Origin: an uncultured Candidatus Saccharibacteria bacterium
GTDB lineage: Bacteria > Patescibacteriota > Minisyncoccia > Phycocordibacterales > UBA9973
Assembly: GCA_964522195.1 (NCBI GenBank)
Contig: CAZFSV010000001.1
Location: 44,680 to 108,679, forward strand
Reading direction: 5' to 3'
Length of the DNA stretch: 64,000 nt
The position numbers and the translations under genes were made by a program. The stretch's first letter is position 1; every line of letters begins with the position of its first letter. Positions 4,839-24,865 of this stretch are shown here, one piece after another. Under the pieces are notes generated by a model. That model was not told where the DNA came from, did not search any database, and saw only the letters and a program-made list of their open reading frames with translations.

Positions 4839-7025
4839 TTATTCAAAATGAAAGTGATTTATTTTCTCTTTTATTTTTTGTTTTAAAATAGGATATTTTT
4901 TTAAATCTTGATCTTCTTTAATTATTTTTGTAGCTTCATTACGAGCAGCTTCTACCATTTTGATATTTTTAATTGCTTCCATAGCCATATCACTCACGCC
5001 CCATTGTTTAACTCCTGATAATTCTCCTGCTCCTCTTAAATTTAAATCAAGCTCAGATAATTCAAAACCATTTTTTGCTGTTTTGAGAGCTTGTAATCTG
5101 TCAATGGTTTTTTGGCTTTTTGCATCAGCAAAAATATAACAATAAGCTTGATGGTTTCCACGAATTACTCTACCTCGAAGTTGATGAAGTTGAGAGAGTC
5201 CAAATCTTTCAGCCCCTTCAATTATTATCATAGTAGCGTTAGGAACATTTACCCCAACTTCTATCACAGAAGTAGCAACTAAAATATTTATTTTCCCTTC
5301 ACTAAAATTTCTCATAATTTCTTCTTTTTTTTGCTTAGTCATTTTGGAATGCAAAACCCCAATTTCGTATTTTGGAAAAACATCTTTCTTTAATCTTTTT
5401 GCCTCCGCAATAGTGTTTTTAACATTTAATTTTATTTCCTGTTCTGGATCTGGTTCATCTATACGAGGGCAAATTACATAAAGTTGTCTTCCATTTTGAA
5501 GCTCTTTTCTAATTTCTTCGTAAGTTTGTTCTCTTTTGTTTGGGGTTATTATTTCAGTTATGATCGGTTTTCTACCCGTTGGCATTTCTTTTAAAAGTGA
5601 TAAGTCTAAATCTCCGTAAATTGTTAAAGCTAAAGTTCTTGGTATTGGAGTTGCTGTCATTGAAAGCAGGTGAGGATAAATACTGTCTTTTTTTACTAAT
5701 TCGCTTCTTTGTTTTGTTCCGAATCTGTGTTGTTCGTCTATAATAACTAATGCTAAATGTTTGAATTTTACATTCTTTTGAATTAAAGTATGAGTACCTA
5801 TTAAAATAGGTATTTCTCCATTTACCACCCATTTTAATAATTGAGATCTTGAAATATCTGTCCAGCCTTCAGGATTTATTTTAGAAGGGAACTTTCTGCA
5901 AGTTTTTCCTGTAATTAAACCAATATTAATACCTAAATTTTTAAAATATTTTATAAATGATTCAAAATGTTGGACTGCTAGTATTTCTGTCGGTACCATA
6001 TAGGCAACTTGCAAGTTACCAAAATCTTGTTTTTTATTAAGTTCTATATTAATAGGTTTTTCATTTATTACTGCATAACTAATTGCACCTGCCACTAAAG
6101 TTTTACCTGAGCCCACATCTCCTTCAAGTAGTCTTGTCATAGGATATTCTTTTTTTAAATCTTCTAAAATTGTATTTATAGAATAACTTTGAGAATCTGT
6201 TGGTTTGAAAGGAAAATTATTTAAAAAATTTTTTACTTCTTCTTGATTAATATTTATTTGAAAAGCTTTGTGTTTTTGATATTCTAAGCGAGCTTTTTGT
6301 CTTTCTAATTGTATAAAAAATACTTCTTCAAAAGCAAACCTTTTAAAAGCAATATCTCTGTCTTTTTTATTTTTTGGCATATGTATCCAAATTAAAGCTG
6401 TCTTTAGGCTAGGTAAATTATATTTCTCTAAAATTTCTTTTGGTATATAGTCTACTGCATTATCTAAACTTTTATCTTTAATAATTTTACTAACTGCATG
6501 ATAAAACCATTTTGAAGTTATTCCACGAGTTTCTCTATAAATAGGGTAAGATAGACCATATTCTTGTTTTTGTTCTTGATTAAATAAAGTGTCATGATGA
6601 TCTATTGGTAAATCAATTGTTTTTTCAATTTCAGGATTTACTAAATAAATTCCATTTTTATTTTGCATAATTTTTCCTGTTAATTTAACATTTTGACCTT
6701 CTTTTATCATTTTAGCTAAATAAGGTTGATTAAACCAAATTATTTTAATTTTACCCGTTAAGTCTTCTAGATAACCTTCACCTAGAGGAATATTGCTTTT
6801 GAAAGCTTTTTTGGTTTTTAGTTTTGAAATTTTCCCATAAATGGTTGCATTTTCTCCTCCAGTCAAATCAATAATATTTTTAATTTCACTAATATCGCTA
6901 TAACGTACAGGAAAGTAAAACAATAAGTCACTAATAGTAAAAAGCCCTAGTTTCTTTAGAGCTTTTTTTTGATTATCGTCTAGTCTAAATTTTTTTTCTA
7001 AATTTTCAGCAAGCATTTTAGCCAA
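4839..7025 (-). CDS. recG: ATP-dependent DNA helicase RecG
   Basis: 728 aa; N-terminal wedge domain; helicase motifs LLEGDVGSGKT, DEQHRFG, TATPIPRTL; characteristic RecG C-terminal region. Confidence 0.85.
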   Translation of the reverse strand: MAKMLAENLEKKFRLDDNQKKALKKLGLFTISDLLFYFPVRYSDISEIKNIIDLTGGENATIYGKISKLKTKKAFKSNIPLGEGYLEDLTGKIKIIWFNQPYLAKMIKEGQNVKLTGKIMQNKNGIYLVNPEIEKTIDLPIDHHDTLFNQEQKQEYGLSYPIYRETRGITSKWFYHAVSKIIKDKSLDNAVDYIPKEILEKYNLPSLKTALIWIHMPKNKKDRDIAFKRFAFEEVFFIQLERQKARLEYQKHKAFQININQEEVKNFLNNFPFKPTDSQSYSINTILEDLKKEYPMTRLLEGDVGSGKTLVAGAISYAVINEKPINIELNKKQDFGNLQVAYMVPTEILAVQHFESFIKYFKNLGINIGLITGKTCRKFPSKINPEGWTDISRSQLLKWVVNGEIPILIGTHTLIQKNVKFKHLALVIIDEQHRFGTKQRSELVKKDSIYPHLLSMTATPIPRTLALTIYGDLDLSLLKEMPTGRKPIITEIITPNKREQTYEEIRKELQNGRQLYVICPRIDEPDPEQEIKLNVKNTIAEAKRLKKDVFPKYEIGVLHSKMTKQKKEEIMRNFSEGKINILVATSVIEVGVNVPNATMIIIEGAERFGLSQLHQLRGRVIRGNHQAYCYIFADAKSQKTIDRLQALKTAKNGFELSELDLNLRGAGELSGVKQWGVSDMAMEAIKNIKMVEAARNEATKIIKEDQDLKKYPILKQKIKEKINHFHFE

Positions 7026-7392
7026 TTATAGATTTTATCTTTAGCACAAGTTCATCTAAAGTAAAATTGGATTTAACCATAAATTCGTTAACTCCTATTT
7101 TTTTGGTTTCTTTTATGTATGATTCTTCAGCTAGATTAGAAAAAACTATTATTGGAGTCGAAGAAACTTTTTGATTTTCTTTTATTTTTTTTAAAATATC
7201 AATCCCGCTAGTTCCAGGTAATAATAAATCTAAAAGAATTAAATCAATCTTATTTGCAGAATCTTCTATTTGCTTAAAAGCCATATCACTATTACCTGCA
7301 ACCAAGGTTGCGTAACCTTCTTTTGTTAATTTTTTTGCTTCTAATCCTTGTAAAAATTCATCGTCTTCTATTATTAGTATTGTTTTAGTCAT
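7018..7392 (-). CDS. Single-domain response regulator (CheY-like receiver)
   Basis: 124 aa; receiver fold with conserved D (IIEDDE), phospho-acceptor LLDLLLPG, K-box. Confidence 0.75.
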   Translation of the reverse strand: MTKTILIIEDDEFLQGLEAKKLTKEGYATLVAGNSDMAFKQIEDSANKIDLILLDLLLPGTSGIDILKKIKENQKVSSTPIIVFSNLAEESYIKETKKIGVNEFMVKSNFTLDELVLKIKSIIG

Positions 7393-7401
7393 ATAAATAA
7401 T

Positions 7402-7776
7402 TTATCCTATTAATTTTATTATTTTTTCAGCTAATTCATCTAAAGTAAAATTAGATTTTATTAAAAATTCATTTGCTCCTAAAGTGTTTGCTTTTTTTAT
7501 GTCTTCATCATTAAATAAATTAGAAAAAATGATTATTGGAACCATAGAATATTTTTCATCTTCTCTAATTTGTTTTAAAATTTCAAAACCATTGGTACCG
7601 GGTAATAATAAATCTAAAAGAATTAAATCAATCTGATTTGATCCATCTTTAATAAACTTAAAAGCATTTTCGCTGTTTATTGCAGGTAAAATATTATAAC
7701 CTTTTTCGGTTAATTTTTTACTTTCCATGCTTTGTAGGAATTCATCGTCTTCTATTATTAATATCGTTTTAGTCAT
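7402..7776 (-). CDS. Single-domain response regulator (CheY-like receiver), tandem paralog
   Basis: 124 aa; first 15 residues identical to the neighbouring receiver (MTKTILIIEDDEFLQ); same receiver motifs. Confidence 0.75.
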   Translation of the reverse strand: MTKTILIIEDDEFLQSMESKKLTEKGYNILPAINSENAFKFIKDGSNQIDLILLDLLLPGTNGFEILKQIREDEKYSMVPIIIFSNLFNDEDIKKANTLGANEFLIKSNFTLDELAEKIIKLIG

Positions 7777-9621: not shown

Positions 9622-9746
9622 GTATAAATTATATCAGAGAAAATAATTTCTGGCGGTGTATGTGAGTTAAGTACCCACGCTATCAATGTTAATAAGGATA
9701 TTTTAGCATGTTTTTGACTAGGTCACTAAGGCAAGTGAGTCGGTCT

Positions 9747-10283
9747 TCATTTTTTAAAATCCCAGTTGTTTTCGTACTTTTCAGCTAACGGTGTTTTAAT
9801 TTTATACTTTTCTTTACTTACACCTAATCTAAAGTTTCTCATCTCGGTTATTTTAAACTTTTCCTTATTGTTTCTTTTTGTCTTTATCCATAATTCGCGC
9901 TCATCTTTAATATATTTAGCCACAACACTACTTGGCACAATATAAAATTTAAAATTTTCAGTTTTATTAGATATATTCACAAAGCAGTAAAACAAATCAG
10001 GATCTTTTATTGTTTCGTGTTTTTTATGCATTATCCAACCACTAACAGTTTTACCAAAAATTCTTGATTCAGATGTTTGATTTCGGTTATTTTTAAAGTT
10101 AGTTTTTACTTCTAATTTATACATCTTTTTTGTGAATGGATTTGAAACTAAGATGTCTACATTTTTTGTATTACCTAATGTCATATTTGCATCCAACCCT
10201 CGTAGTACAAGTTGTGAAAGCACGGCAAATTCTCCAGCCAGAGAAACAGAATTTCTATTTATTTTTTCTTTATTATTTTCCAT
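9747..10283 (-). CDS. Predicted PD-(D/E)xK nuclease (Hjc/restriction-endonuclease-like fold)
   Basis: N-terminal LAGEFAVLSQLVLRG helix followed by VDILV...YKLEVKT (D...ExK) core; 178 aa. Confidence 0.45.
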   Translation of the reverse strand: MENNKEKINRNSVSLAGEFAVLSQLVLRGLDANMTLGNTKNVDILVSNPFTKKMYKLEVKTNFKNNRNQTSESRIFGKTVSGWIMHKKHETIKDPDLFYCFVNISNKTENFKFYIVPSSVVAKYIKDERELWIKTKRNNKEKFKITEMRNFRLGVSKEKYKIKTPLAEKYENNWDFKK

Positions 10284-10360
10284 ATATAACTACATTTTAA
10301 CACTTTTTATAATAAGTTTAGACCATACCCACATAGACACAATAGACACCTCTTTATAGA

Positions 10361-11419
10361 CTAAGGAAATAATTCTAGATACTTTTCTGGACCCCATGCT
10401 TTCAGTAGTTTTTTGAAGATTTCAATATCTCTATCTTTCAGGGGTTGGTCGTTAAAACCACCATATTGGTTAAGGATGTTTAATTCTCTTTGGGTTTTAT
10501 TTGGATTAGCTTTCCATTCTTTTAATACCCTATAAATCTTTTCGGCTTCAATCTTGGTGTGTTCTTTTAGTTGTTCTTTGATTTGATTTACCTCAATAAG
10601 CATTTGGGCTCCGTTTGGAGTTTCGTATTTATGAAGAAGATTTTCATAAGCATATTTATCCATTTCTTTTGTAGCCACAGGAATTCTTCTTATGTATTTA
10701 CTACTACTGCCATTTGGTAGTAAAAATTCATACTGGCGATATTCGACACCTTCTTCATCTGTGTGAGATGCCCATTCTCTAGCAAAGCCGTTATCTATAT
10801 GATCTTTCATTGCTAGATTTAAGAACTTTTCTTTTCCTTTGGCATCAGAAGCTTCCCAACATTCACAAATTAATTGAGCTCTCATCCAGATAAAGCTCGA
10901 GTGAGCTTTGTTGTCCATTAATAATTCCCAAGCTTTTTTACTTAATTCTTTATCATCACTAATTATTGCCTGTTGAATCATTTTGTATTTATCTTCATAA
11001 GTCATAGCTGAAAACTTTCTGATTGTTTCAATTGCTTTTTCTCCTTCATCTCTAGTTTTCTTTACAAACCTTTCTATCTCAGCAAAAATTCTTTCATTCT
11101 TTTCTTTCTTTTGATCAATTTCAGCTTTTCTATAAAAAATAGTTCCTGTGTCATTAGCTAAATACATCAATGCATCTGGTTTGTAGTCCTTTATTTCTTG
11201 AGCGTAGTATTCACTACCAAAGAAGATGATAATAAATGGATTTATTTCTTCAATTTTAGATTTCCAATTGGTTGGAGTTTGGTTAGAGTAATATACATTT
11301 CCTAAATCATACTTGGAAATTAAATCCTTGTAATAACTATTATCTCTAAGTTCCTTAGCTTTTCTGTTCGCCATTTCAGTCAAAGGAACATATCCTATTA
11401 TTAAAGTATTTATTTCCAT
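10361..11419 (-). CDS. Hypothetical protein (352 aa), middle gene of nuclease cassette
   Basis: Long ORF tightly coupled (2-nt spacer) to upstream gene; no recognisable motif. Confidence 0.45.
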   Translation of the reverse strand: MEINTLIIGYVPLTEMANRKAKELRDNSYYKDLISKYDLGNVYYSNQTPTNWKSKIEEINPFIIIFFGSEYYAQEIKDYKPDALMYLANDTGTIFYRKAEIDQKKEKNERIFAEIERFVKKTRDEGEKAIETIRKFSAMTYEDKYKMIQQAIISDDKELSKKAWELLMDNKAHSSFIWMRAQLICECWEASDAKGKEKFLNLAMKDHIDNGFAREWASHTDEEGVEYRQYEFLLPNGSSSKYIRRIPVATKEMDKYAYENLLHKYETPNGAQMLIEVNQIKEQLKEHTKIEAEKIYRVLKEWKANPNKTQRELNILNQYGGFNDQPLKDRDIEIFKKLLKAWGPEKYLELFP

Positions 11420-11421
11420 AT

Positions 11422-11934
11422 TTATTTAATATCCCATTCAAACAAAATAAAGTTCTCTGGTAGTAAACCTTCTTTCAAAGATTCTTCAAGCCAGAGTATT
11501 TGTGTGTCTTGAATTTTATCTTTCTTTTTTCTTTTGAGTTCTATAAAAAGTATTTGACTATCTTTCCAAACAAGCACATCCCAACAGCCACCAGATTTCC
11601 CAGTTTTCTCTTTTATCTTATTTATCAAATCTTCTTTATCTTTAGGTATTTCTATTGGTTCAACAACTTTAGGTAAACCAATTCTGTATTTTCTTCTGTA
11701 TGAATCCACCCAAACACCGCTCCAACCATTTTCTTCAAAAATACGTAAAACAGCGAGCTCTGCAAAAAGAGGCTCGCTGTTATAATCAATCACGGCTTTA
11801 TTGCCATAAGTATAATCTATGGGTTTTCCTTTCCATTCGTTGAATTCAAAAAAGTATTTCTGAATTGGTATTTGTTTTTTATCTGACAATAAAAATATTT
11901 CATCATCAGTTTGATGTTTTTTAAGAAATTGCAT
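11422..11934 (-). CDS. Predicted VRR-NUC-like PD-(D/E)xK nuclease
   Basis: AELAVLRIFEENGW helix then CWDVLVW...ILFIELKRKK...QDTQILWLEE (D..ExK followed by conserved Q..W), pattern typical of VRR-NUC domains. Confidence 0.4.
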   Translation of the reverse strand: MQFLKKHQTDDEIFLLSDKKQIPIQKYFFEFNEWKGKPIDYTYGNKAVIDYNSEPLFAELAVLRIFEENGWSGVWVDSYRRKYRIGLPKVVEPIEIPKDKEDLINKIKEKTGKSGGCWDVLVWKDSQILFIELKRKKKDKIQDTQILWLEESLKEGLLPENFILFEWDIK

Positions 11935-11936
11935 TG

Positions 11937-12099
11937 CACTCTAGCGGGTTAGTGCAGGCTAGGAACTTTTGTGTATCAAAAGGCTCCCAGCCATTGCGAT
12001 AGACCGAAGTCTACCCGTATAAGTTTCCCTATACGACCCGCTAGAGTGACTCTGACTGGGAGTCCTTTGATCTCTAGCGGGAGATTTGCGACCATGCCT
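11937..12099. other. GC-rich structured repeat element (13-bp inverted repeats cactctagcgggt/acccgctagagtg plus third partial copy)
   Basis: Abrupt GC-rich block in AT-rich DNA. A perfect 13-bp inverted repeat at 11937-11949/12036-12048 encloses ~85 nt with sub-hairpins (tagac-UUCG-gtcta on minus strand, cgtata...tatacg). ctctagcggg recurs at 12071-12082. Confidence 0.4.
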
Positions 12100-12528
12100 C
12101 AAATAAATAAGGTTTAGGTCTTCTATTCAATTGTTAATGAAATTATACCTTATTTTCAAAGGTCCTGCATCTTAGCTTAATCCTTGAGATTTGTGTAGTC
12201 ATTAAAAATCCATCTGTGGATAACTTTTGATTTTTTATTTACACACCTTTTTGTATTAAAACTAGGTCATCTTTCTTAAAAGAAAAATCACAAAAATTCT
12301 ATTTACACTACTGACAGAATTTCTGTGATTTTTTGTTTGCAATAAAAAATATGTGTGTATAAAATACAAATATAACTAAATTGTGAGATTTTAATATCCC
12401 TAAACTGTTTGAGTAAGATCGGTCGATGAAAAGATCAAACTCGGAAGTGGGATATTTTTATTTCAACTTCACTTAATTGAGAACTAAACTGACTACCTAA
12501 ATTGAATTAAAAGCTAATTCAAAATTTT

Positions 12529-13851
12529 ATGAATAAAAATTTAAATATCGTTTATGTTCCAATTAAAAAACTCAAATTATCCGAATACAATCCTCGCAAA
12601 CAAAGCGAAGAGCAAGTAAAAGCTCTCACAGAAAGTATTAGTAGATTTGGTCTTGTCGATCCTGTCGTTTGTAATAGTGCCCCTCAAAGGATGAATGTCC
12701 TAATAGGAGGGCATTTCAGATTGAGGGTTGCTAAAGATCTCGGGTACACAGAAATGCCAGTAGTGTATGTAAATATCTCAGACATTGAAAAGGAAAAGGA
12801 ATTAAATATAAGATTAAATAAAAATGTTGGAGAGTTTGATTATGCTTTGCTTCAAGATTTCAACGAAGAATTCTTGGCAGGGGTAGGTTTTACCAGTGAA
12901 GAATTAGACACTATCTTTGACATAGACCCCAATCCAGAACAATTCAATCTCAAGGAAGAGCTTGAGAAGATGGATATAAAAGTGAAGGTTCAGAAAGGAG
13001 ATATTTATGAGATAGATGGTTCATACCTTATGTGTGGAGATTCAACCATAGAAGCAGATATGCTCAAATTAATGGAAGGTGCTCAAGCAGATATGGTGTG
13101 CACTGACCCGCCATATATTCTTGACTATCTAAAAGGCAAAACCAAACAAAAAGACGGTGTAACTGTCGGCTTTGGTGCCAAGAAGAACAGAAGATATCTT
13201 GAAACCGAATCTTTGCCTGATAACTTTACTGATTTGTGGATGGCGAATGTGCATAAGGTTCAGAAACCTGATTTTTCAATCATCATATTTGAAAATCCAA
13301 AGAACTTACGAATCATTTGGAATGCTCTCGAGAAGTACTGGAAATATCGTAACACGATTGTGTGGCATGTGCCAAACAGAATGCAAGGTTTTTCTGCAAA
13401 GATGAAATTCTTTAACAAGCACGATATAGCATTAGTCGGTAGCACAGATAGCGTGACCATCAACCTCGAGCCAGAAGAAGAGATATTTCAGAATGAATAT
13501 GAGAATGCTCTCTTTGCTTCATCTGGCAAACCACATTGGGAATCTTATGGTAAAGGTAAAAAGATATGCCCAACGGACTTTATCGAACACATCGCCGCTG
13601 ATAAAAAATCCTCAGGACAAGATATTATCTTTGGAACAAAACCACTTGAACTTTTGATTCCATATATCAAGGTTCTAACTACACGAGGTCAATTAGTACT
13701 TGAGCCATTTGGAGGCTCTGGATCTACTCTTATAGCTTCTTTAAAGCTAGGTCGAAAATGCAGAATAATGGAAAAGTCTCCTGTCTATACAGAAGTGATT
13801 ATCAAAAGATGGGAAAAGCACACAGGCAAAAAGGTTACCAAAATTAATTAA
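12529..13851 (+). CDS. ParB-like nuclease domain fused to beta-class N6A/N4C DNA methyltransferase (orphan MTase, phage/plasmid type)
   Basis: N-terminal ParB/Srx-like region (LIGGHFRLRVAKDLG); MTase motif IV DPPY (MVCTDPPYIL) preceding motif I FxGxG (LEPFGGSGSTLIA) = beta permutation. Confidence 0.8.
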   Translation: MNKNLNIVYVPIKKLKLSEYNPRKQSEEQVKALTESISRFGLVDPVVCNSAPQRMNVLIGGHFRLRVAKDLGYTEMPVVYVNISDIEKEKELNIRLNKNVGEFDYALLQDFNEEFLAGVGFTSEELDTIFDIDPNPEQFNLKEELEKMDIKVKVQKGDIYEIDGSYLMCGDSTIEADMLKLMEGAQADMVCTDPPYILDYLKGKTKQKDGVTVGFGAKKNRRYLETESLPDNFTDLWMANVHKVQKPDFSIIIFENPKNLRIIWNALEKYWKYRNTIVWHVPNRMQGFSAKMKFFNKHDIALVGSTDSVTINLEPEEEIFQNEYENALFASSGKPHWESYGKGKKICPTDFIEHIAADKKSSGQDIIFGTKPLELLIPYIKVLTTRGQLVLEPFGGSGSTLIASLKLGRKCRIMEKSPVYTEVIIKRWEKHTGKKVTKIN

Positions 13852-13859
13852 TCATCCAT

Positions 13860-14543
13860 ATGGCTAAAGACAAAACATCAAGACATGAATTGAAACGAAA
13901 CAGAGAACTAAAAGGAAATCTTGAATTAGCCAAGGGTAGTATATCCAGAGAGAGTAAATCTTTCTCTAGGTATGACCCTGATGAATTCATTACTAAAGGT
14001 AAACCAAACATACCCAAAGACATTCCAGAAAAAGAAAGAAAAAGATTAGAAAAACTTGCAGAAGAAACTGAGAAGAATAAAAAAGCTTTGGTATCACAAT
14101 TGCGAAAAACTCCCATAGCTCAGATAGCTTGTGAAAAGACTGGAATAGGCAGATCTACTTATTACAAATGGCGAGCAAATGACTTCATTTTTGCTCGTGT
14201 CGCTGATAAAGCGATGGATGCAGGTAGATTCTTCATCAATGATATGGCTGAATCAAAACTAATCAAACTCATTCAAGATAGTAATATGCAAGCCATTAGT
14301 TTATGGCTAAGACATAACCACCCTAGATACACATCTTTAGGTAGGATTATTAAAGACTTTGAAATTCTAACTGAAACTCTCTCAACAGAAGAGAAGAATG
14401 TTGCAGAACAAATGCTCTCAGAACTGGTGATGAATAAAGCAAAGTTAAACTATTCGAGCAAAGATTTGAAGGAGTATTACAACAAAGAAGAGAGTAAGAA
14501 TCCTGAAGATGAAAAAAGAATGCGGGGGTTTGATGAGGATTAA
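13860..14543 (+). CDS. HTH-domain protein (terminase-small-subunit/transposase-HTH-like), unknown function
   Basis: Basic N-terminus, putative HTH IACEKTGIGRSTYYKWRAND; 9 nt downstream of ParB-MTase. Confidence 0.4.
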   Translation: MAKDKTSRHELKRNRELKGNLELAKGSISRESKSFSRYDPDEFITKGKPNIPKDIPEKERKRLEKLAEETEKNKKALVSQLRKTPIAQIACEKTGIGRSTYYKWRANDFIFARVADKAMDAGRFFINDMAESKLIKLIQDSNMQAISLWLRHNHPRYTSLGRIIKDFEILTETLSTEEKNVAEQMLSELVMNKAKLNYSSKDLKEYYNKEESKNPEDEKRMRGFDED

Positions 14544-14595: not shown

Positions 14596-17500
14596 TTACC
14601 TTCGATATTTAAGTTTACGGTTGTCAAATGCCGGTAATGTTCCTTCAAGTATATCGACAACGTACTTATTGATTTTTGGATTTTCAATAGAACCCGAATA
14701 AAAATCGAAGTCGTTCTTATTCTTTTTGTCTATGTGTACGTGGATTATCTGTTCCGCGTCTGCCACAACTGCAAGATTTGGGTTGTGGGTGACCATAATA
14801 ATTTGACGACGCTTCTTTGCTTTTTTAAGAAATGTCACAAGGATTTCGTATACACTTTTGTTATCGAGGTTATCTTCCGGTTGGTCTATGACAAGTGGTA
14901 TATCCCGACGATCAAGCATTAGATAGAAGATAAGCAGAAGACCACCCCTTTCGCCCGGCGACAATTCACTAAGGTCTTTCTCATCGACTTTCAGGTCATA
15001 CTTAGTCTCCAAGTAATCGAATCCAAAAATATAATCATATAGATCGACGGGTTCCTTGCCTTGCTTCATCTGCTTGAACACACCACGAGCCTTATTTTCG
15101 TTAGCAGGTAGACCAACTCTTTTATCAGTATCGATATTGGCCGTCACGGAGTCGAGGAAAGACATTACCATTTTCTCATTCTGCCAATTGGTTACTTCCT
15201 CAACAATTCTTTTAAGCACACTTTTACCATCCTCTGTTCCGTAAAAACTACCTTTAACCGCCTGATTAACAAATCTAAAGAATTCATCGAAAAATGTTTT
15301 GTCGAAGCGAAGACTCGCTTCTATAGAGATGTCGTAGTCGCCTAACTCTTCGCTATATTTTTCAATTTCTCCGTCGATTGATTTTTTCACCGAGTCGTAG
15401 AAGGTAGCCAACGTCACCTTCTTGGCGAAGATTTCCTTGCTGACTCTTGTCCGTTCTTCCTTGGCAGTGGTCAGTTCCGCAGGGTAAGTTGATGTAATCG
15501 CAACAAGTTCCTTCGTAAGCCAGTTAAGCGTATCCGCGACTGGGGTTGTATCATCGCCAACCAATTCTTTCAGTTGATTTTCCCACTTTTCCTTATCTTT
15601 CAGATAGGCTTGGTATTCCTGATTCGGTTTATCAAGCCGGTCAACGATTTCTTTTCTCTGTTTAGACAACAGCGCCTGTTTGCAGACTAGGCTTTTTCCC
15701 AACGCAAGTTTCTTGTCAGCATCATTCAGACCTAATGTCTCAATATCGGCTTCAGTTTTGAGGAGTTCATTTATCTCGGCGAGTCGGTCCTCATTGGTTT
15801 TGACAAAATCATCGATTTTTTTGGAATCAAACGATACTGTGACAATGTCATCGAATTTTATGTCTGCAGCCGTAAGTTGCTCTCGGTATTTAGTCTTTAA
15901 ACCCGTAATACCCATGACTTGGCGAGAGATTGCCAGTTTTATTTGTCCAAAGTCCTGAACTTTCTTTGCAACGGACGCCTGCTCCGTCTTAATTGCAGTG
16001 ATTGATGTGGCTAACGTGGTCAATTCAGTTTCTATGGGCGTAATCTCAGACACACCTCCCGTCGCAACCTCAGTGGCTTGTGCTGGTTTTGGGGCGTCTT
16101 TTGGTTTCAGCTTGTTATGGGTATCTACCTCCTCTTCCTTGATCCGCTTCTTTTCCTCAATCGACTTCTTGTAATCAGGCGCGAGTTTTCGTTCAGCGGC
16201 AACAACCTTGTTGTTTGCCTCATGCAATGAGTCCTTAGCTAATTTTATATCCTCCTCTATCTGACTTGAGAGATAGGTGATGAGTTCCTCTAAGGTCGTC
16301 TTTTCAAATCGGTCCTTTTCTTCAACGTACCCAAAAATGACCTCATTTAATTTTCCCCTGAACTCATCATCTTCTATATTCGCACAAATCTTCTCAAGAT
16401 ATTTTTGGGGTAGGTACTCGACCTTTTCAGAAAGGGTTTTGTCGACTTCTGCATCCAGAAGGATTCCGTCCGGCTCTCCCGCATGCCAATGTAATTCACC
16501 AGAAAAATTCGAAGCGCACCGCCCTTTGAGAAATTTGTCTTTATTCAAGAAGGAGAATAATTCTTCGGATCGACCGTTCGTACCGTCATACTTCTGGTTA
16601 TGACTATTGCCAAACAACCCCACTATGTCCGTGACAGCACTTTTACCACTTCCTTTGTTACCAATGATGGCAACAAGTTCGGGATTCAGGTCGATCTTTT
16701 CGTCTTTAAACCATGTGCCGTGTTTTCCGTCGTACCCTTCAATCTGGTCAATATGTAGAGTTTTTATGTACTTAGTCTGATTGGTACGCACGCGATCCAA
16801 AATGCCAGGCTCATCTCCTATGAATATTCGTTCATCAGGTTCATACGTGATGTACTTGAGACCCTCAAACGTTAGGTCCGCCTTAACCCAGGTGATGTCT
16901 CTTTCTATCACGGTCAGATTTTCGGCGTCCGTTTTTATGATCCTTTTGCCAAGCGCATTTTCAAGATCATTAAAAGAGTGAGCGTCACTACCGCATGCGA
17001 CAGGCTTGGGTACCGAACCTTCGTAACGCTCACCGAGAAAGAAATCCTTATCATCAGCACGTCCGAAAAATACTGGGCAAACATCGTCTATAGTTTTCGC
17101 GTACTCCGTGTGTCTGCCCTCATGTTGCGGCGGGCGGATTCCACCGTAACCATTTGCTACACCAAAAACTAGAAAAACATCGCGATTTCCGAATGTCTTC
17201 TTTAGTGAGTTAAGAATTGCATCACTAGTAACAATTGCCTTATCATATCCGATGCGCGCCAAGTCAGTTTGTACGCATTTAGATTTTGAACCGTCTACAT
17301 TAACATTTCTTAGCTCAATACCGCTCAGAAATCTTTCGATTTCCTCTTTTGTTGCCTCATCTGAGAAAACAATGTGAATATTTATGTGATCGTTCTCTTT
17401 ATTTTTATCTTCAAGTCTAAATTCAATATTTGGAAAAAATATTTTCTTTGAATCTGGATATTTTGTCTTAAATTTTTCAATAAAAGTGAAGTAACCATCC

Positions 17501-17688
17501 GCAGAGAAATAATCGGTGATACCAAAGGCATATACATCAGATTCTTCCAACTTTCTACAATATTCATCCCACACGTCTTTACCAGAAGAAACAGCGTACT
17601 GGTCATTTAGTTTTGTGGTTGGTGGATGAATATGAAGATCCCACTTTCTCCATACTGAACCTATTCTAAACTCGTCTTTCTGAACCAT
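14596..17688 (-). CDS. PHP-domain phosphoesterase fused to SMC/RecN-like ABC ATPase with central coiled-coil (PplA-like defence protein)
   Basis: N-terminal PHP motifs (WDLHIHPP HxH, ...ACGSDAHS). Walker A AIIGNKGSGKS. ~450-aa coiled-coil/low-complexity spacer. ABC signature LSPGERGG, Walker B VIDQPEDNLD, H-loop IIMVTHNP. 2-nt spacer to upstream res gene. Confidence 0.7.
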   Translation of the reverse strand: MVQKDEFRIGSVWRKWDLHIHPPTTKLNDQYAVSSGKDVWDEYCRKLEESDVYAFGITDYFSADGYFTFIEKFKTKYPDSKKIFFPNIEFRLEDKNKENDHINIHIVFSDEATKEEIERFLSGIELRNVNVDGSKSKCVQTDLARIGYDKAIVTSDAILNSLKKTFGNRDVFLVFGVANGYGGIRPPQHEGRHTEYAKTIDDVCPVFFGRADDKDFFLGERYEGSVPKPVACGSDAHSFNDLENALGKRIIKTDAENLTVIERDITWVKADLTFEGLKYITYEPDERIFIGDEPGILDRVRTNQTKYIKTLHIDQIEGYDGKHGTWFKDEKIDLNPELVAIIGNKGSGKSAVTDIVGLFGNSHNQKYDGTNGRSEELFSFLNKDKFLKGRCASNFSGELHWHAGEPDGILLDAEVDKTLSEKVEYLPQKYLEKICANIEDDEFRGKLNEVIFGYVEEKDRFEKTTLEELITYLSSQIEEDIKLAKDSLHEANNKVVAAERKLAPDYKKSIEEKKRIKEEEVDTHNKLKPKDAPKPAQATEVATGGVSEITPIETELTTLATSITAIKTEQASVAKKVQDFGQIKLAISRQVMGITGLKTKYREQLTAADIKFDDIVTVSFDSKKIDDFVKTNEDRLAEINELLKTEADIETLGLNDADKKLALGKSLVCKQALLSKQRKEIVDRLDKPNQEYQAYLKDKEKWENQLKELVGDDTTPVADTLNWLTKELVAITSTYPAELTTAKEERTRVSKEIFAKKVTLATFYDSVKKSIDGEIEKYSEELGDYDISIEASLRFDKTFFDEFFRFVNQAVKGSFYGTEDGKSVLKRIVEEVTNWQNEKMVMSFLDSVTANIDTDKRVGLPANENKARGVFKQMKQGKEPVDLYDYIFGFDYLETKYDLKVDEKDLSELSPGERGGLLLIFYLMLDRRDIPLVIDQPEDNLDNKSVYEILVTFLKKAKKRRQIIMVTHNPNLAVVADAEQIIHVHIDKKNKNDFDFYSGSIENPKINKYVVDILEGTLPAFDNRKLKYRR

Positions 17689-17690
17689 GA

Positions 17691-19961
17691 TTATTTCAAT
17701 TCAAAAAATTCCCATCCTTTCATCGACGAGTCGAAAGAATATTTTGCGTTTTTGTTTATCTTCCATCCATTTGGCCCATCTTGGACAGCTATACCACCGG
17801 CAAAACCTTTTTTGCCCTTTAGCCATGCTTGAAGTGCCTCGGCTTTGTACTTTGTATCGTTGCTCTCCGCAGTAATTCCGCCTTTAGTATCAACAATGTA
17901 GAGAGTGTCTTTGGTCTGTACAATCCAGTCGGGATAGAAAAGTTTTTCCTTGTTTTCATCCTGATTGTAGTAAGAGATAGAGAAGTATTCGCTTCCCGAG
18001 TCGCCGTTTTTGTACCACCACACTACGCCCCTAGATGATTCGAGGAATTTTACAAACGCTTCCTCGTTAGTTCGTCCTGCATAATCTTTTTCTATCCAAA
18101 ACGGCTCCATAGCTGACTTCTTAACAGAAAGTGCTTCGTATTGATCAGTGAAGAACAAAGCTTCGCGTGGGATTTCAATATTCTCAACGCGCTTTGCGCG
18201 TGCAGATTTTTTGTTTACTTCTTGTTCACGAACAGGTCGATATTCAAGAAGTGCATCACCAATTACCGGAGCAAGTGCACCAGATGGACTCAAGAGATCG
18301 TTTACGATGATTTTATAGGCATCAATACGCTCCGCCTTAAGCTTATTCATTAGCCAAATATTTAAAGCTGTTTTCAGCTTTCCCCACGAACGCTCAGGAG
18401 CAAATTTTCTGTTCTCGTCTGTCTGTTTTGCAATAATTTTGAAGCAGAGGAGGTTATAGAGTCGCTCGAGATCGTGTCGAGACATTTCCTGCTCATGACT
18501 TCCTCCTTCTGCAAGAAGCTCCTTAGTAAAGTTGTCGTAATCATCAATTTCTACCCCAACGATCAAGCCGTTTGTGACTTTCGGCTTCAAATCCATTTTC
18601 TTTACATCTAGTTTTTTATCCGCAACTTTCTTGAATGTTTCTTGGAATGTATCGCCAAGGTCGTTATAGTCGGCACGAGTCATAAAGACCGATTCAAGCT
18701 TGATCGGCTTTATGTTTTTCTTGCGATAGCTTCCGTTTATTGCAGGGCGGTTTTCTGTCTTTGATTTTGCATACTCGGCAAGTACCTCGTTTCGCTTGTA
18801 GTTTGTATAGAGATAACCCAAATTAAGTTCAGGGTGTGCGAAATGCACGCCAAACGGCATTCGCAAGATGCGCCCTACAGTCTGAATTGCAAAAGTAGGA
18901 TTTTTGATTTCGCGGAACATCACAAGCACGCCCGCGCGCGGACAGTCCCAGCCAGTCGCGGCGGCTTGCTTGAAAAGCAAGAACGAAACCGGAGAATTAC
19001 TCTTTTCCAAGTCTTCAAGATTTTCCTTTTCTTTAGAAAGCCATACTGCAATTTCGTTTCCTTTTACACCCTTACGCTTTAGATATTCCAAAACAATTTG
19101 CTGTTTAGTTGTACCACCTGTTTCTTTTGTTGCTTGGTCGTCATTTGGTAGCTGTATCAGTACAAGCGGATTTACTTCTGCTTTTATTTCTTTATAGAGA
19201 GAAACGAGCTCCTCGCGCTTTGAATACGCAAGCTCTAAAAGCATTTCATCTTGATCAAGTTTCTTGATTGCTTTCTGACCCAAATCTTCCTCAGTTTGAA
19301 AAACAATTTTTTCCTTAATGAGTCCCGCTTCCACAACTTCAGCTCGCTTTACCTCGATATATCCGGCAACATCAGCACGGGTAGGGATGTATTTCGGCGT
19401 AGCCGACACGCGAATAGTGATTTTGGGTTTAACAACCCCATTTATAACTTCGTCCGCAAGTTCTGTATCAGAGCCAATATGCTCCTCGTCAATAATCACG
19501 ACAATTTTTCTTCCGTCCTCGTGGGTTTCGGCGATAAAATTATCAAAAGTTAGTCCTTGTTCATTATCTCGGCGAAGCTTTCGGCTATCTTTCGTCTTAC
19601 CTTTGATTTTTTGCCAGTTTATGAAAAAGACATTGTTCTTCTTTAGCTTTCCGCGCGAAAGATCGTTAAGATCAATCAAATCAAGCTCGGATGCTCCTCC
19701 ATAGTATTCAAAAAGTTTCTTTTTACTTTGTTCGTATGATTCTTCGCTAAACGAGAACCAAACAAATGCCACATCATTTCCCTCAAAACGAGGATCGCTC
19801 ACAATATCGCGTAAAAATTGCGCAAGCATGATTGTCTTACCCGAGCCAGTAGGCGATTTAAAGACGACGGGTGTATTTTCGTTCGGTAATTTCCACAGCG
19901 AAAGAAACTCATTTTTGAGATTCGATACTGCGGTTTCTTGAAATGGTTTTAGTGCAAACAT
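17691..19961 (-). CDS. res: Type III restriction enzyme Res subunit (SF2 helicase + PD-(D/E)xK endonuclease)
   Basis: Helicase motifs I FKSPTGSGKT and II VIIDEEH; C-terminal endonuclease motif YPDWIVQTKDTLYIVDTKGG (PD...DxK). Confidence 0.75.
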   Translation of the reverse strand: MFALKPFQETAVSNLKNEFLSLWKLPNENTPVVFKSPTGSGKTIMLAQFLRDIVSDPRFEGNDVAFVWFSFSEESYEQSKKKLFEYYGGASELDLIDLNDLSRGKLKKNNVFFINWQKIKGKTKDSRKLRRDNEQGLTFDNFIAETHEDGRKIVVIIDEEHIGSDTELADEVINGVVKPKITIRVSATPKYIPTRADVAGYIEVKRAEVVEAGLIKEKIVFQTEEDLGQKAIKKLDQDEMLLELAYSKREELVSLYKEIKAEVNPLVLIQLPNDDQATKETGGTTKQQIVLEYLKRKGVKGNEIAVWLSKEKENLEDLEKSNSPVSFLLFKQAAATGWDCPRAGVLVMFREIKNPTFAIQTVGRILRMPFGVHFAHPELNLGYLYTNYKRNEVLAEYAKSKTENRPAINGSYRKKNIKPIKLESVFMTRADYNDLGDTFQETFKKVADKKLDVKKMDLKPKVTNGLIVGVEIDDYDNFTKELLAEGGSHEQEMSRHDLERLYNLLCFKIIAKQTDENRKFAPERSWGKLKTALNIWLMNKLKAERIDAYKIIVNDLLSPSGALAPVIGDALLEYRPVREQEVNKKSARAKRVENIEIPREALFFTDQYEALSVKKSAMEPFWIEKDYAGRTNEEAFVKFLESSRGVVWWYKNGDSGSEYFSISYYNQDENKEKLFYPDWIVQTKDTLYIVDTKGGITAESNDTKYKAEALQAWLKGKKGFAGGIAVQDGPNGWKINKNAKYSFDSSMKGWEFFELK

Positions 19962-19965
19962 AGTT

Positions 19966-21651
19966 TTATAGGCGATTTATTTCTTTGTATACCTCAAGGA
20001 TCGGCTCGGGAATATCCTCGACTCGGATATGTGCGGATGAATATTCACCCTTGTATTCGTTCTTGCCCCAACTGAAAATATACAGAGCGACAGGTAAACT
20101 TTTCTTTTCAAGTTTTTCAATCAATTCTGCAAGCTTTGATTTGTCCTCCTTGAAATAGATTGCTGTCATTCGTCCGCGACCTTCAAAAATCTGCCACCAT
20201 TCATTTTTTTCAACTTCATTGAGAGTATCTTCACGGACAGCAATCATTTCTCCGGCTTGATAGGTAACACGAATTTTTGCTTCGTCAGGTATCTTCTGAA
20301 GATGTTCAATCTCAACAATATCTGTTTTGTAGTATGCAAGATTTCCTCCAAGCCCTTCAATTTTTTCACCAGTTTTTAAATTTTTATAGCCACTCATTAC
20401 TCGTTTTACGCGTTCGTAAGTCACTTCCTTGCAAATATTGTTTTCATTGTTAGTGCAAAGAATAAATCTACGATGACCACCGTCCTCTTTATTTATCTCG
20501 AGTACAGCATGACCAGTAGTACCAGATCCAGCAAAAAAGTCTACAACAAGAGCGTTGCGCCTATTTTTTGTTGTGGCAATTAAACACTCTTTTGTGTTGT
20601 AAAGTGATTTCGGAAATGGGAATTTTGTATCGATTATTTGATTTACCAAGCTTGAACCATAAGTATTAGAGTTATGTTTTGAATCCACCCATACTGTTTT
20701 GTATCTGTATTGACTCTTATATCTGTTGATTACAAGTTCACCTTTATTTTCTTCACACTTTAGTTCTCCCCAAATATCCTCAACTGTTTGTCTTGCAAAT
20801 CGCCACTTTCTTTCCACACCATTTCCATCAATGGGGTAAATTTCAACATTCCCATCTTTTCTTTTCTCGTTTGCGGATTTCGGATGTATCTCATCTTGAA
20901 GAACATCGCCAAATCCAATAATTTTCTTTGTTTTAGGATCAACAATAATTGAATAGAAACAATTTCGTGCTGTGTTCCTCTTAGATTCATCGCCACCCCA
21001 GTCTCTTAATGGGGTGGGTTTAACATCTTCTCTTTCTACGCGAGAAATATATTCCTTTCCTTTCGGAAAAATGAAATATGCATATTCGTGGGTATATGAG
21101 AAATTATCTCCTTGAATTCCACCTGGATTATGAATGATGGTTACGCAGACCTTTTCATGGGTAGGAAAAATATCCTCGAGCAAGAGACCTAGTGTCTCTT
21201 GCTCGTTGTGATCAATAGCACAAATTAAAATTCCATCTTGATTAAGAAGTTCCCTTGCGAGCTTCAATCTGTGACTCATAAAAGACAACCATTTGCTATG
21301 ACGATATTCGTCTTCCTTGTCTACATAGTCGTTGTTGTATCTCCAGTTTTTCGCTCCTGTGTTGTAGGGTGGATCAATGTAAATAACATCAACCTTCTTT
21401 TTATGAGTATAAACAAGAGCTGAAAGTGCATGATAGTTATCACCCTCAATCAGAAGATTATAGATTTCATTATCTGACTTCTTAACCTTAAGGTTTTTTA
21501 TTTGTCTCAATACAGGTATATTTTTTTGACCATCTACAACGACATCTTCTGGTTTTTCCTCCCAGATTAAGCCGTACTTGCGATCTTTTTTCAGACGTCT
21601 CAGTTCTGATTTCAAATCCGCTATCTCTTTTTGTAAATCTTTTTCAGACAT
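19966..21651 (-). CDS. mod: Type III R-M Mod subunit, N6-adenine DNA methyltransferase (beta class)
   Basis: Motif IV IYIDPPYNTG upstream of motif I VVDFFAGSGTTGHA; central variable TRD; 4 nt upstream of res. Confidence 0.8.
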   Translation of the reverse strand: MSEKDLQKEIADLKSELRRLKKDRKYGLIWEEKPEDVVVDGQKNIPVLRQIKNLKVKKSDNEIYNLLIEGDNYHALSALVYTHKKKVDVIYIDPPYNTGAKNWRYNNDYVDKEDEYRHSKWLSFMSHRLKLARELLNQDGILICAIDHNEQETLGLLLEDIFPTHEKVCVTIIHNPGGIQGDNFSYTHEYAYFIFPKGKEYISRVEREDVKPTPLRDWGGDESKRNTARNCFYSIIVDPKTKKIIGFGDVLQDEIHPKSANEKRKDGNVEIYPIDGNGVERKWRFARQTVEDIWGELKCEENKGELVINRYKSQYRYKTVWVDSKHNSNTYGSSLVNQIIDTKFPFPKSLYNTKECLIATTKNRRNALVVDFFAGSGTTGHAVLEINKEDGGHRRFILCTNNENNICKEVTYERVKRVMSGYKNLKTGEKIEGLGGNLAYYKTDIVEIEHLQKIPDEAKIRVTYQAGEMIAVREDTLNEVEKNEWWQIFEGRGRMTAIYFKEDKSKLAELIEKLEKKSLPVALYIFSWGKNEYKGEYSSAHIRVEDIPEPILEVYKEINRL

Positions 21652-24806: not shown

Positions 24807-24865
24807 GGTACGTGAGTCACACCGCTTGCACGGGCAAGTGGGTTGACTCCGATACTAAATTGTGT

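Follow-up and report, generated by a model that had tools for sequence, protein, structure and literature searches.

Do three adjacent minus-strand genes, two of them resembling nucleases, form one dedicated system at the edge of a genomic island? The window (the whole stretch of DNA that was analysed, 64,000 nucleotides) comes from what its sequence indicates to be a CPR (Patescibacteria-type) bacterium, and an earlier note on it described a cassette of two small nucleases bracketing an uncharacterised larger protein. Its three minus-strand ORFs, with their coordinates, lengths and 2-nt and 77-nt spacers, are reproduced here. Absent from that description was an RNA: a LOOT RNA lies directly upstream of the first gene, on the same strand. 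We conclude that the conserved organising feature of the locus is this structured RNA leader, not the nuclease pair, and that the apparent three-gene nuclease cassette is, as judged by sequence comparison, an RNA-led two-gene operon next to an unrelated mobile endonuclease gene. The genes are as follows:

g1, 11422-11934, minus strand: predicted VRR-NUC-type PD-(D/E)xK nuclease of 170 aa, the first ORF behind LOOT
g2, 10361-11419, minus strand: 352 aa, member of a small, apparently CPR-restricted family, starting 2 nt past the g1 stop
g3, ORF 9747-10283, minus strand: 178 aa, predicted free-standing PD-(D/E)xK endonuclease, preceded by an upstream region of its own
g3-carrying insertion, 9745-10333, minus strand: about 589 nt, missing from the near-identical element L055

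The reading of g1, g2 and g3 as one operon does not survive comparison with L055, a near-identical element whose g2 is 98% identical to that of the window. Beyond a point 27 nt past the g2 stop, L055 has 6 nt and then continues with what lies behind g3 in the window, the empty site reading GTGTCTA-CTACAT-ACCGACTC. Because L055 joins the two flanks without g3, this gene and about 50 nt upstream of it constitute a separate insertion of about 589 nt, which appears to be self-contained and to carry a free-standing homing-endonuclease-like PD-(D/E)xK gene. The call of a nuclease fold for g3 holds up: the modelled structure contains the alpha-beta-beta-beta-alpha-beta core, and the catalytic residues E18, D43, E58 and K60 are invariant among 31 sequences. 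The family is large, with 962 matches, the best 120 of the 962 at 57% identity or more, and relatives occur in unrelated contexts. g3 belongs to no Pfam or NCBIfam family, has no match in PADLOC-DB v2, matches only PHROG families of unknown function (E 3.3e-7), and as a profile finds no real match among PDB sequences. Its identity to the I-Ssp6803I homing endonuclease, the NhoI restriction endonuclease and archaeal Hjc resolvases is 11-17%, and it lies outside any intron.

The first nuclease assignment also stands, though narrowly. g1 passes the Pfam VRR_NUC (PF08774) cut-off by a marginal 24.1 against 23.8 bits (E 3.8e-5), four of the six members of its family match (best E 8.4e-6), and E59, D119, E132-x-K134 and Q145 are invariant in the six sequences, which retain the D...ExK core and downstream Q of VRR-NUC nucleases. 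These are known as stand-alone phage and bacterial proteins and as the C-terminal domain of FAN1; g1 differs from them by an N-terminal extension of about 100 aa. Its profile has no real match among PDB sequences, and its best PADLOC-DB v2 hit (PDC-M29B, E 0.009) falls short of a system component. The lack of a recognisable motif in g2 is borne out by searches of Pfam, NCBIfam, PHROGs and PADLOC, none of which gave a family match (best PADLOC E 0.096), alongside a weak Replic_Relax match (E 0.014), not taken as meaningful. Nothing in BFVD resembles its predicted structure at E <= 0.001 (Foldseek), and an exhaustive HMM search returned the same small family and fragments only; from these sequences, the family appears to be small and restricted to CPR. 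PADLOC has no model that fits the locus.

What, then, accompanies g2 in other genomes? Among 24 distinct g2-anchored loci, homologues of g1 occur in six and homologues of g3 in none, so that the co-occurrence of the trio, which the earlier note had itself proposed to check, was not found, and a self-contained two-nuclease module around g2 is contradicted. LOOT, by contrast, precedes g2 in the same orientation in 17 distinct g2-anchored loci. Because most loci were gathered through g2, the association has been viewed from that side alone; g2 is missing from six LOOT loci that were found independently (L032, L042-L045 and L050/L051). The first ORF behind LOOT varies: it is a VRR-NUC protein in six loci, a member of the gA family in five, and elsewhere an HNH, NucS-like, SNase or PG_binding_1 protein, and in six loci a small membrane or secreted protein. 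At least nine first ORFs fall into four Pfam-supported nuclease families. The gA proteins are called nucleases from the motif AEY...DxD...IEVK alone, neither comparison with the g1 and g3 profiles (hhalign) nor a search of the PDB having given a match. Annotation suggests that the first gene product would be harmful. The leader in front of this slot is composed of the following elements:

LOOT RNA core (Rfam RF03000), 11998-12120, minus strand: helices P1, P2 (A:A'), P3 and P4
LOOT leader 3' extension, 11932-11997, minus strand: outside the Rfam model; holds B', C, A2 and the g1 AUG (11932-11934)
segment A (CCCGCUAGAG), 12072-12081, minus strand: 5' arm of P2, pairs with A'
segment A' (CUCUAGCGGG), 12037-12046, minus strand: partner common to A and A2
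segment A2, 11939-11948, minus strand: exact duplicate of A, with 4 nt between its end and the g1 AUG
segment B, 12053-12062, minus strand: apical part of P2, complementary to B'
segment B', 11984-11993, minus strand: pairs with B or, alternatively, with C
segment C, 11957-11971, minus strand: alternative partner of B'
conserved LOOT 5' flank, 12121-12225, minus strand: UUAACAAUUGAAUA box, TAUAAU, covarying hairpin, CUAAGCUAAG box and DnaA-box-like TTATCCACA

The core is a full-length member of the LOOT family, a motif from the Weinberg/Breaker metagenomic collection, scoring 76.6 bits, where the gathering score is 46.4, over model positions 1-121 of 121 (Rfam cmscan) and lying 63 nt upstream of the g1 AUG. 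It shares P1-P4 and their covariation with the known motif, including an 11-nt-receptor-like internal loop in P1 and an invariant GAAA loop in P3. Across 20 related sequences, 98.7% of the helix cells are paired and 26 of 29 pairs show compensatory changes; none of 500 shuffles reached the whole-structure measures, and slid controls gave 28-41%. In the 17 canonical loci measured, the distance from the start of LOOT to the AUG is 159-200 nt. The searchable literature presents LOOT only as a metagenome-derived family, with no function or gene association stated; it was described in 2017 and reportedly first seen in marine metagenomes near tRNA genes. To the known family our loci add a consistent CPR phage context. 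The conserved 5' flank, whose DnaA-box-like 9-mer (TTATCCACA, at 12215-12223 in the window) is kept about 85-150 nt upstream of LOOT, may be either a promoter or further RNA.

The leader differs from the Rfam model in a 3' extension of about 65 nt, in a helix, B:B', formed in competition with the apical part of the model's P2 stem, and in the additional copy of A at the start codon of the downstream gene. It contains two sets of three covarying segments, A/A'/A2 and B/B'/C, and the predicted fold of 11925-12140 has z = -7.9 relative to shuffled sequences. In covariance-model alignments, both of which were fitted to the structures under test, helix A:A' is 99.5% paired and helix A':A2 95.9%, each with compensatory changes in nine of ten pairs and with none of 500 shuffles matching the whole-structure measures. 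Whereas P3 and P4 contain G-U pairs, A:A' has none in 20 sequences. In 19 of 24 LOOT loci the A of that locus recurs, exactly or nearly so, 0-10 nt before the AUG of the first ORF, with at least nine different A sequences represented. In 14 of the first 20 loci the copy beats all 1000 shuffles; five of the 24 (L009, L018, L020, L042 and L045) have no clear A2, L045 being without an ORF directly behind LOOT. No consistent Shine-Dalgarno sequence is seen in A2 across the loci.

B:B' runs of 9-15 bp, against about 5-6 bp in shuffles, occur in 22 of 24 loci tested, with sequences that differ between loci and G-U pairs among them; the run in L018 was found only by a wider search. L042 gave 7 bp by automatic detection, and a 12/13-bp pairing is read there by eye. 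The MAFFT leader alignment was too poor in the variable helices and the model-X alignment placed the tails of divergent sequences wrongly; B:B' is therefore given per sequence with shuffle controls and not as column counts. The RNA alignment A7 includes one spurious minus-strand row and excludes L023. Nearly every locus is predicted to form a B':C hairpin.

Together these pairings allow two folds. Fold X would combine A:A' (P2) with B:B' and leave the g1 start region single-stranded; fold Y would combine A':A2 with B':C and bury the ribosome-binding region. Because A2 copies A exactly and abuts the AUG (19 of 24 loci, 0-10 nt), the start region is base-paired in fold Y, and the leader has covarying alternative pairings that include the translation-initiation region, as expected of a cis-regulatory leader. 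The two folds are mutually exclusive and, by prediction, nearly equal in energy: for the window about -79.6 kcal/mol for X (nested -57.4 plus a duplex term of -22.2, with the pseudoknot penalty ignored), -78.6 for X' and -83.7 for Y. Minimum-free-energy predictions switch between X and Y from locus to locus. Other classes of element fit poorly. A2 is not followed by the U-run of a transcription terminator; LOOT is not a split att site, because it is intact inside an integrated island; and it has no tandem repeats such as those of a type III toxin-antitoxin RNA, while direct neutralisation of a protein by the RNA would call for a less variable first ORF.

The surroundings connect the locus to phages:

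ParB_N-N6_N4 DNA methyltransferase (ParB-MTase), 12529-13851, plus strand: Pfam, PADLOC and PHROG matches, divergent from LOOT
terS-like HTH protein, 13860-14543, plus strand: Pfam HTH_Tnp_1_2 (1.2e-6) and PHROG terS (1.5e-5)
large serine recombinase, 22089-23366, plus strand: Pfam Resolvase, Recombinase and Zn_ribbon_recom

An island of about 15 kb with raised G+C, its boundaries drawn from G+C and gene content, has the cassette at its far edge and the tRNA-Ser genes at the opposite one. The large serine recombinase is likely the integrase of the island, and homologues 52-60% identical to it adjoin LOOT in L042, L043 and L044; the g3/epimerase spacer and the tRNA-Ser edge share no repeats of at least 9 nt, direct or inverted, as is expected where a serine recombinase acts. 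Genes for Shedu, a TrlF-family ATPase and ResIII are near the cassette. No protein neighbour of LOOT is more constant than ParB-MTase, whose homologues adjoin LOOT in 12 loci and in L032, L044 and L050, and a terS-like homologue is followed by terL in L043, L044 and L050. LOOT also occurs without g2 in CPR prophage and phage contigs, beside a ParB/MTase-terS-terL module and a large serine recombinase. The island in the window has a serine recombinase, ParB-MTase and a terS-like gene, and no terL, capsid or structural genes; because terL (PHROG 38, E 5e-83) and genes for portal and major head proteins are present in related LOOT loci, we regard it as phage-derived, perhaps a remnant or satellite-like, and its sequence suggests that it is integrative. 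The fallback suggestion of the earlier note, a module of the integrated element, comes closer than its main proposal, in that ParB-MTase and the terS-like gene adjoin the operon in what appears to be a phage-derived island.

How might these parts work together? We consider it probable that a LOOT-led g1-g2 operon carries a cis-acting translational switch within a phage-derived CPR island, into which g3 was separately inserted. The region would then be the accessory arm of the integrative island, in which a structured 5' leader of at least about 190 nt heads the two genes. Nascent RNA would form X first, an ON state, and may then relax into Y, an OFF state, the balance being set by some input: a ligand, a protein (g2 or ParB-MTase, for example) or simply the kinetics of folding. 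Such a switch would limit the synthesis of a harmful first gene product.

Could the same observations be read otherwise? A single dedicated defence or toxin-antitoxin module in which both nucleases act with g2 would explain why three genes lie adjacent on one strand with short spacers, why both nuclease folds are real, why Shedu, the TrlF-family ATPase and ResIII are nearby, and why homologues of g3 close LOOT operons in L032 and L050/L051. Its genes do not travel together, however: the counts among g2-anchored loci, the precise lack of g3 in L055, the far larger size of the g3 family with its unrelated contexts, and the lack of a PADLOC match make this reading very improbable. We give still less credence to the view that the repeats act as DNA, as a replication origin, operator set or recombination site of the element. 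The DnaA-box-like 9-mer, the strictly Watson-Crick pairing of A:A', and the location between divergent genes, with a serine recombinase adjoining in some loci, would suit it, but the abundant G-U pairs of P3, P4 and B:B' become A-C mismatches on the other strand, the GAAA loop and the CCUAA...AUGG receptor-like loop are RNA motifs, and a protein-binding site would not vary freely in sequence yet keep its complementarity. If the RNA is accepted, it might still be an independent trans-acting phage small RNA that merely shares a location with g1, as the Rfam type 'Gene; sRNA', the LOOT copies found without g2 and before many unrelated genes, the five copies without A2 and the LOOT of L045, with no ORF directly behind it, would allow. 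This we hold to be improbable, since A2 follows the locus-specific A and abuts the start codon whichever gene comes next, LOOT is always on the strand of the downstream ORF, within a narrow range of distances from its AUG (159-200 nt in the 17 loci measured), and B' and C covary past the Rfam 3' end.

Two further readings accept the switch or the gate and differ over what it controls. The more plausible of them, unlikely yet deserving serious attention, is that g1 and g2 serve the ordinary DNA processing of a phage, in replication, recombination or packaging, and are not harmful or conflict effectors, while LOOT times an early or late gene set. A PHROG Holliday-junction-resolvase match (E 8.5e-4) points this way, nucleases of the VRR-NUC and HNH types are frequent in modules with which phages replicate and package their DNA, the operon borders on the packaging module, and in L045 LOOT stands before genes for portal and head proteins. 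Against it, a fixed enzymatic step would hardly be filled by unrelated proteins that include tiny membrane peptides, g2 is without counterpart in PHROGs or among BFVD structures, and the operon is retained in an island without terL or structural genes. Alternatively, a restriction-modification-like or addiction module may be imagined in which ParB-MTase protects, the LOOT-gated gene is its cognate nuclease, and LOOT delays that gene as a controller would; an RNA gate suits late nuclease expression, the methyltransferase is the most constant and usually divergent neighbour, and the first ORF belongs to a Pfam-supported nuclease family in at least nine cases, with five gA proteins in addition (motifs only). 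The constant methyltransferase-endonuclease pair of a type II system is nevertheless not found, the first ORF being a small membrane or secreted protein in six loci and a PG-binding protein in one; VRR-NUC and HNH are unusual as folds of sequence-specific restriction enzymes; and the methyltransferase, which is not divergent in L003, L010 and L042, heads an MTase-terS-terL operon, as fits an orphan phage methylase. We judge such a module to be distinctly improbable.

Returning to a cis-acting switch ahead of an exchangeable gene, we speculate, with considerable reserve, that LOOT loci are RNA-gated effector systems of CPR phages, in which the two-state leader would detect a signal of infection or of the lifecycle, perhaps by way of g2, a partner in many elements, or of ParB-MTase, and then free a swappable toxic effector for translation. 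The effector could be a nuclease or a membrane protein, and the outcome abortive infection, superinfection exclusion or timed host killing; this would give a function to an RNA family for which none is known, and to the g2 family, which has no recognisable fold.

LOOT is one of many structured RNAs from comparative genomics that are still without function or host. It gains here a host group (the phages and phage-derived islands of CPR/Patescibacteria), a fixed place in the genome next to a ParB/MTase-terS packaging module and an integrase, a structure longer than the Rfam model, and a testable mechanism in which two interlocked pairings would expose or bury the start codon of the next gene. 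Should this mechanism be true, LOOT would be a portable translational gate before dangerous genes in phages of ultra-small, poorly studied bacteria, and would offer a route to finding its trigger and characterising g2.

Among known systems, the leader most invites comparison with translational riboswitches and bistable leaders of the sequester/anti-sequester kind, in which likewise one strand, here A', has two partners, in the structured domain or in the initiation region, and in which the predicted energies of the folds are close, as they are here. Leaders governed by folding kinetics are known from the MS2 maturation gene and the hok mRNA. The LOOT leader differs in using two interlocked three-segment sets instead of one, and the likeness, drawn by analogy, is a resemblance of switching logic, not family membership. 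Type II restriction-modification systems with a controller (C-protein) also place a DNA methyltransferase beside a nuclease gene, apparently gated separately, as here. At LOOT loci, however, the gate would be an RNA, the gated slot sometimes holds a gene other than a nuclease, and the methyltransferase belongs to a phage packaging-module operon, so that membership in the C-protein regulated systems is not supported.

The three minus-strand genes are organised as the earlier note described, with spacers of 2 nt and 77 nt between them. The 590 nt upstream of the first contain a markedly G+C-rich, self-complementary segment, and here lies a full-length copy of the structured RNA family LOOT, which the note overlooked.

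Features of the g1-g2-g3 locus
9747-10283, minus strand: g3, ORF of 178 aa, Hjc-like nuclease
10361-11419, minus strand: g2, ORF of 352 aa
11422-11934, minus strand: g1, ORF of 170 aa, VRR-NUC-like nuclease
11998-12120, minus strand (that of g1): LOOT RNA (RF03000), full length, Rfam 76.6 bits against a gathering score of 46.4

Both nuclease calls of the note were correct. g1 passes the Pfam VRR_NUC cut-off narrowly (24.1 bits against 23.8), the model is matched by four of six g1-family members, and the family holds E59, D119, E132-x-K134 and Q145 invariant; a PDB sequence search with g1 gave no match. g3 belongs to no curated family in Pfam or NCBIfam; E18, D43 and E58-V-K60 do not vary among 31 sequences, and its confident AF2 model (pLDDT 89) superposes on PD-(D/E)xK nucleases. 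The absence of a recognisable motif in g2 is likewise borne out, with no match in Pfam, NCBIfam, PHROGs or PADLOC, and a profile search run exhaustively over 1.84 billion representatives returned 57 matches, all of them the g2 family or its fragments; named members come from MAGs of Paceibacterota, Taylorbacteria, Saccharibacteria and Moraniibacteriota. The g2 structure model is confident (pLDDT 90), and has no matches but generic flavodoxin/CheY-like ones, over the first ~95 residues, and none among viral structures.

Do the three genes belong together? The proposal of a novel three-gene nuclease cassette fails the co-occurrence check: among loci collected by g2 homology (5 genome, 26 metagenome and 1 viral), just six have a g1 homologue, which in one of them lies downstream of g2, and none has a g3 homologue. 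At 17 distinct loci of this set a LOOT RNA precedes g2 in the same orientation; five g2 loci with sufficient upstream sequence lack one. The same element is found on another contig (L055), which has a g2 98% identical to that of the window and the same gene order (MTase-ResIII-TrlF-HTH-ParB-MTase-g1-g2). This contig is collinear with the window, a few substitutions aside, up to 27 nt beyond the g2 stop; 6 nt (CTACAT) follow, and then the window sequence lying beyond g3. This junction without g3 identifies window ~9745-10333, comprising g3 and its own upstream region, as a discrete insertion. The g3 family has 962 matches, the best 120 of the 962 all being at least 57% identical to g3, and while some members close other LOOT operons (L032, L050/L051), others neighbour a tRNA gene and Abi_alpha (L036-L039) or stand in one of two further LOOT-free contexts (L052-L054). 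Such varied contexts, together with an I-Ssp6803I-like fold, would fit a free-standing, homing-endonuclease-like mobile gene.

Because the g2-anchored locus set is biased towards g2, we scanned IMG/VR with the LOOT-flank pattern, which yielded four more LOOT loci (L042-L045; Rfam 78-85 bits), all without g2; two more (L032, L050/L051) were reached through g3 homologues. The most constant protein neighbour of LOOT is a usually divergent ParB_N-N6_N4 methyltransferase (ParB-MTase). The ORF directly behind LOOT varies from locus to locus, and g2, where present, is next in line, with an overlap or gap of a few nucleotides.

First ORF behind LOOT
VRR-NUC (g1 family): window, L008, L014, L015, L016, L040
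gA family (~195 aa, E...DxD...ExK motif, nuclease by motif only): L001, L002, L003, L010, L032
HNH: L024
NucS_C-like plus DUF5655: L020
Membrane-anchored SNase (Pfam 1e-25): L013
PG_binding_1 protein: L050
Proteins without family assignment, 268 aa and 359 aa: L042, L044
Small membrane or secreted proteins: L009, L021, L023, L026, L028, L043
g2 itself: L018

The RNA extends beyond the Rfam model, and two sets of three segments covary across loci. In the first set, segment A (CCCGCUAGAG in the window), the 5' arm of stem P2, pairs with A', and a second copy of A, termed A2, follows 70-92 nt further on, its end 0-10 nt short of the AUG that starts the next ORF. A exists in at least nine versions between loci, and A2 matches it in 19 of 24 (no copy was found in L009, L018, L020, L042 and L045); in 14 of the first 20 loci the copy is better than all 1000 shuffles. 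In the second set, segment B, in apical P2, can form a run of 9-15 bp with B', a segment immediately beyond the 3' end of the Rfam model. Such a run was detected in 22 of 24 tested loci, against 5-6 bp in shuffles; the sequences differ between loci and include G-U pairs. The run in L018 was seen in a wider search only, and L042 gave 7 bp by automatic detection and a 12/13-bp pairing read by eye; L050/L051 were left out of the per-locus A2 and B:B' tests. Alternatively, B' can pair with C, the segment behind it, and almost every locus is predicted to form this hairpin.

When 20 sequences were realigned to a covariance model built for each fold, helix A:A' was paired in 99.5% of cells and A':A2 in 95.9%, each with compensatory change in 9 of 10 pairs; slid controls were 28-44% paired and 0 of 500 shuffles reached the observed whole-structure values, although these alignments are fitted to the structures tested, which makes the per-sequence shuffle tests the more independent line of evidence. 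Thermodynamic predictions switch between the two folds from locus to locus, and in the window the fold energies lie within about 5 kcal/mol of each other: about -79.6 kcal/mol for A:A' + B:B' (nested fold -57.4 plus a duplex term of -22.2, without pseudoknot penalty), -78.6 for A:A' + B':C and -83.7 for A':A2 + B':C. The P3 loop is an invariant GAAA, and the P1 internal loop, CCUAA(A/C/G)...(C/U)AUGG, appears to resemble the classical 11-nt GAAA-tetraloop receptor. A:A' (12072-12081 with 12037-12046) contains only Watson-Crick pairs in the 20 sequences, which hold dozens of G-U pairs in P3 and P4; the requirement that A equal A2 does not by itself explain this.

From the alternative helices, their covariation and their position we infer regulation, with a direction and a trigger: LOOT and its 3' extension would act as a cis-acting bistable leader. 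In the nascent RNA, A:A' and B:B' would form first and leave the start region accessible; transcription of C and A2 would then permit refolding to A':A2 and B':C, burying the ribosome-binding region. The balance might be shifted by a ligand, by a protein such as g2 or ParB-MTase, or by the refolding rate alone, and the purpose would be to cap or time the synthesis of a harmful product.

Several rivals were weighed. A trans-acting sRNA has to be set against the strongest argument for action in cis on translation of the next gene, namely that A2 fits its own leader whatever gene comes behind. A DNA-level element has to be set against the plentiful G-U pairs in P3, P4 and B:B', which assign the structure to RNA of the LOOT strand. 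The other candidates were an R-M-like pair, ordinary phage DNA processing and the three-gene module. The cis-acting leader is itself weakened by the five LOOT copies without A2, the lack of a consistent Shine-Dalgarno sequence in A2, the missing G-U pairs in A:A' and sampling biased towards g2.

The 5' flank of LOOT is also conserved (window 12121-12200, minus, and the corresponding 75 nt at 24 further loci), with a UUACAAYUGAAUA box, a TAYAAT hexamer, a CUAAGCURRG box and a hairpin that stops just before TAYAAT or overlaps it, its arms varying between loci, with G-U pairs. The RNA may start further upstream, giving a conserved leader of ~280 nt; alternatively, the flank is a promoter with an operator-like repeat. 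Between ParB-MTase and LOOT, ~85-150 nt upstream of the RNA, a DnaA-box-like 9-mer (TTATCCACA / TTATNCACA) recurs.

DnaA-box-like 9-mers
Window: 12215-12223 and 12354-12362, minus strand
L001: 3418-3426
L002: 5101-5109
L008: 5178-5186
L028: 5292-5300
L032: 629-637
L010: 7181-7189 (MTase located elsewhere, 9-mer upstream of it)

The whole window holds 5 copies of the 9-mer for 2.8 expected, a count that does not rise above chance, but its position is conserved; an origin or a promoter regulated by DnaA could lie here. Midway in the divergent region, a long A/U-flanked hairpin (12279-12345, AAAAAUCACAGAAAUUCU...AGAAUUUUUGUGAUUUUU) with the look of a two-way terminator has weak sub-threshold Rfam matches only (rli51, 22.6 bits), and suggests that another small transcription unit sits between LOOT and the MTase gene.

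The surroundings of related loci are those of a phage. Behind the MTase, L043, L044 and L050 carry an HTH/terS-like gene and then a large terminase (PHROG 38, E 5e-83 in L044 and 8e-75 in L043; a weak Pfam Terminase_6C match in L050), L045 has portal and major head genes, and the serine recombinases of L042-L044 are 52-60% identical to that of the window. Several phage contigs carry DGR-type reverse transcriptase and bAvd genes near LOOT (L043 2333-3391, PHROG 1423, E 9e-111; L045 565-1668; L050/L051 1-867), and the defence or mobile-element cargo adjoining the module at other loci includes type I R-M genes, a KAP NTPase, Dam methylase and S24 peptidase.

A ~15-kb stretch of the window has a G+C content of 0.37-0.44, higher than the 0.24-0.31 of its flanks, and g1-g2-g3 lie at the left end of this stretch.

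Other genes of the island
14596-21651, minus strand: TrlF-family AAA-like ATPase (NCBIfam NF045780, 651 bits; PHP-like region at the N-terminus), ResIII helicase and a second, N6_N4 methyltransferase
23374-24762: Shedu protein (SduA_C)
Also ParB-MTase, an HTH protein similar to terminase small subunit, and a large serine recombinase
24866-24955, minus strand, and 25022-25111, plus strand: two divergent tRNA-Ser genes, at the other end of the island

The retained recombinase, ParB-MTase and terS-like gene, with the phage setting of related loci, indicate that this island, which has no terL or structural genes, is phage-derived, either a remnant or a satellite-like element. The TrlF-ResIII-methyltransferase block, present also in L055 (1-6822), is likely defence cargo; the helicase-methylase pair again adjoins a LOOT-g2 module in L021 (4366-8819). 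The tRNA-Ser nearest the island, with the anticodon ACU (ARAGORN), unusual in bacteria, does not duplicate the neighbouring tRNA-Ser(GCU), and could be carried by the island or tied to the integration site. The presumed ends share a short motif, GGCAAGTGAGTC in the g3/epimerase spacer (9728-9745) and GTGAGTCAC and GGCAAGTGGGTTGACTC in the Shedu/tRNA-Ser spacer (24815-24855), spotted by eye alone and shorter than the 9-nt repeat-search threshold, which may relate to recombinase sites or to chance. The host flank holds two tandem 124-aa stand-alone response-regulator receivers (7018-7392 and 7402-7776, minus), clearly paralogous with identical N-termini, adjoining a histidine kinase.

In the searchable literature LOOT is listed only as a metagenome-derived family, with no function or gene association. 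Within that literature, what is new is its extended two-state architecture, its place in cis to a variable gene, mostly a nuclease or membrane protein, its housing in phage-derived elements of CPR bacteria beside the packaging module, and g2 as a frequent partner without assignable fold. The RNA itself falls within an established family, and the nucleases add new members to folds already described; as a kind, the LOOT leader would belong with regulatory mRNA leaders.
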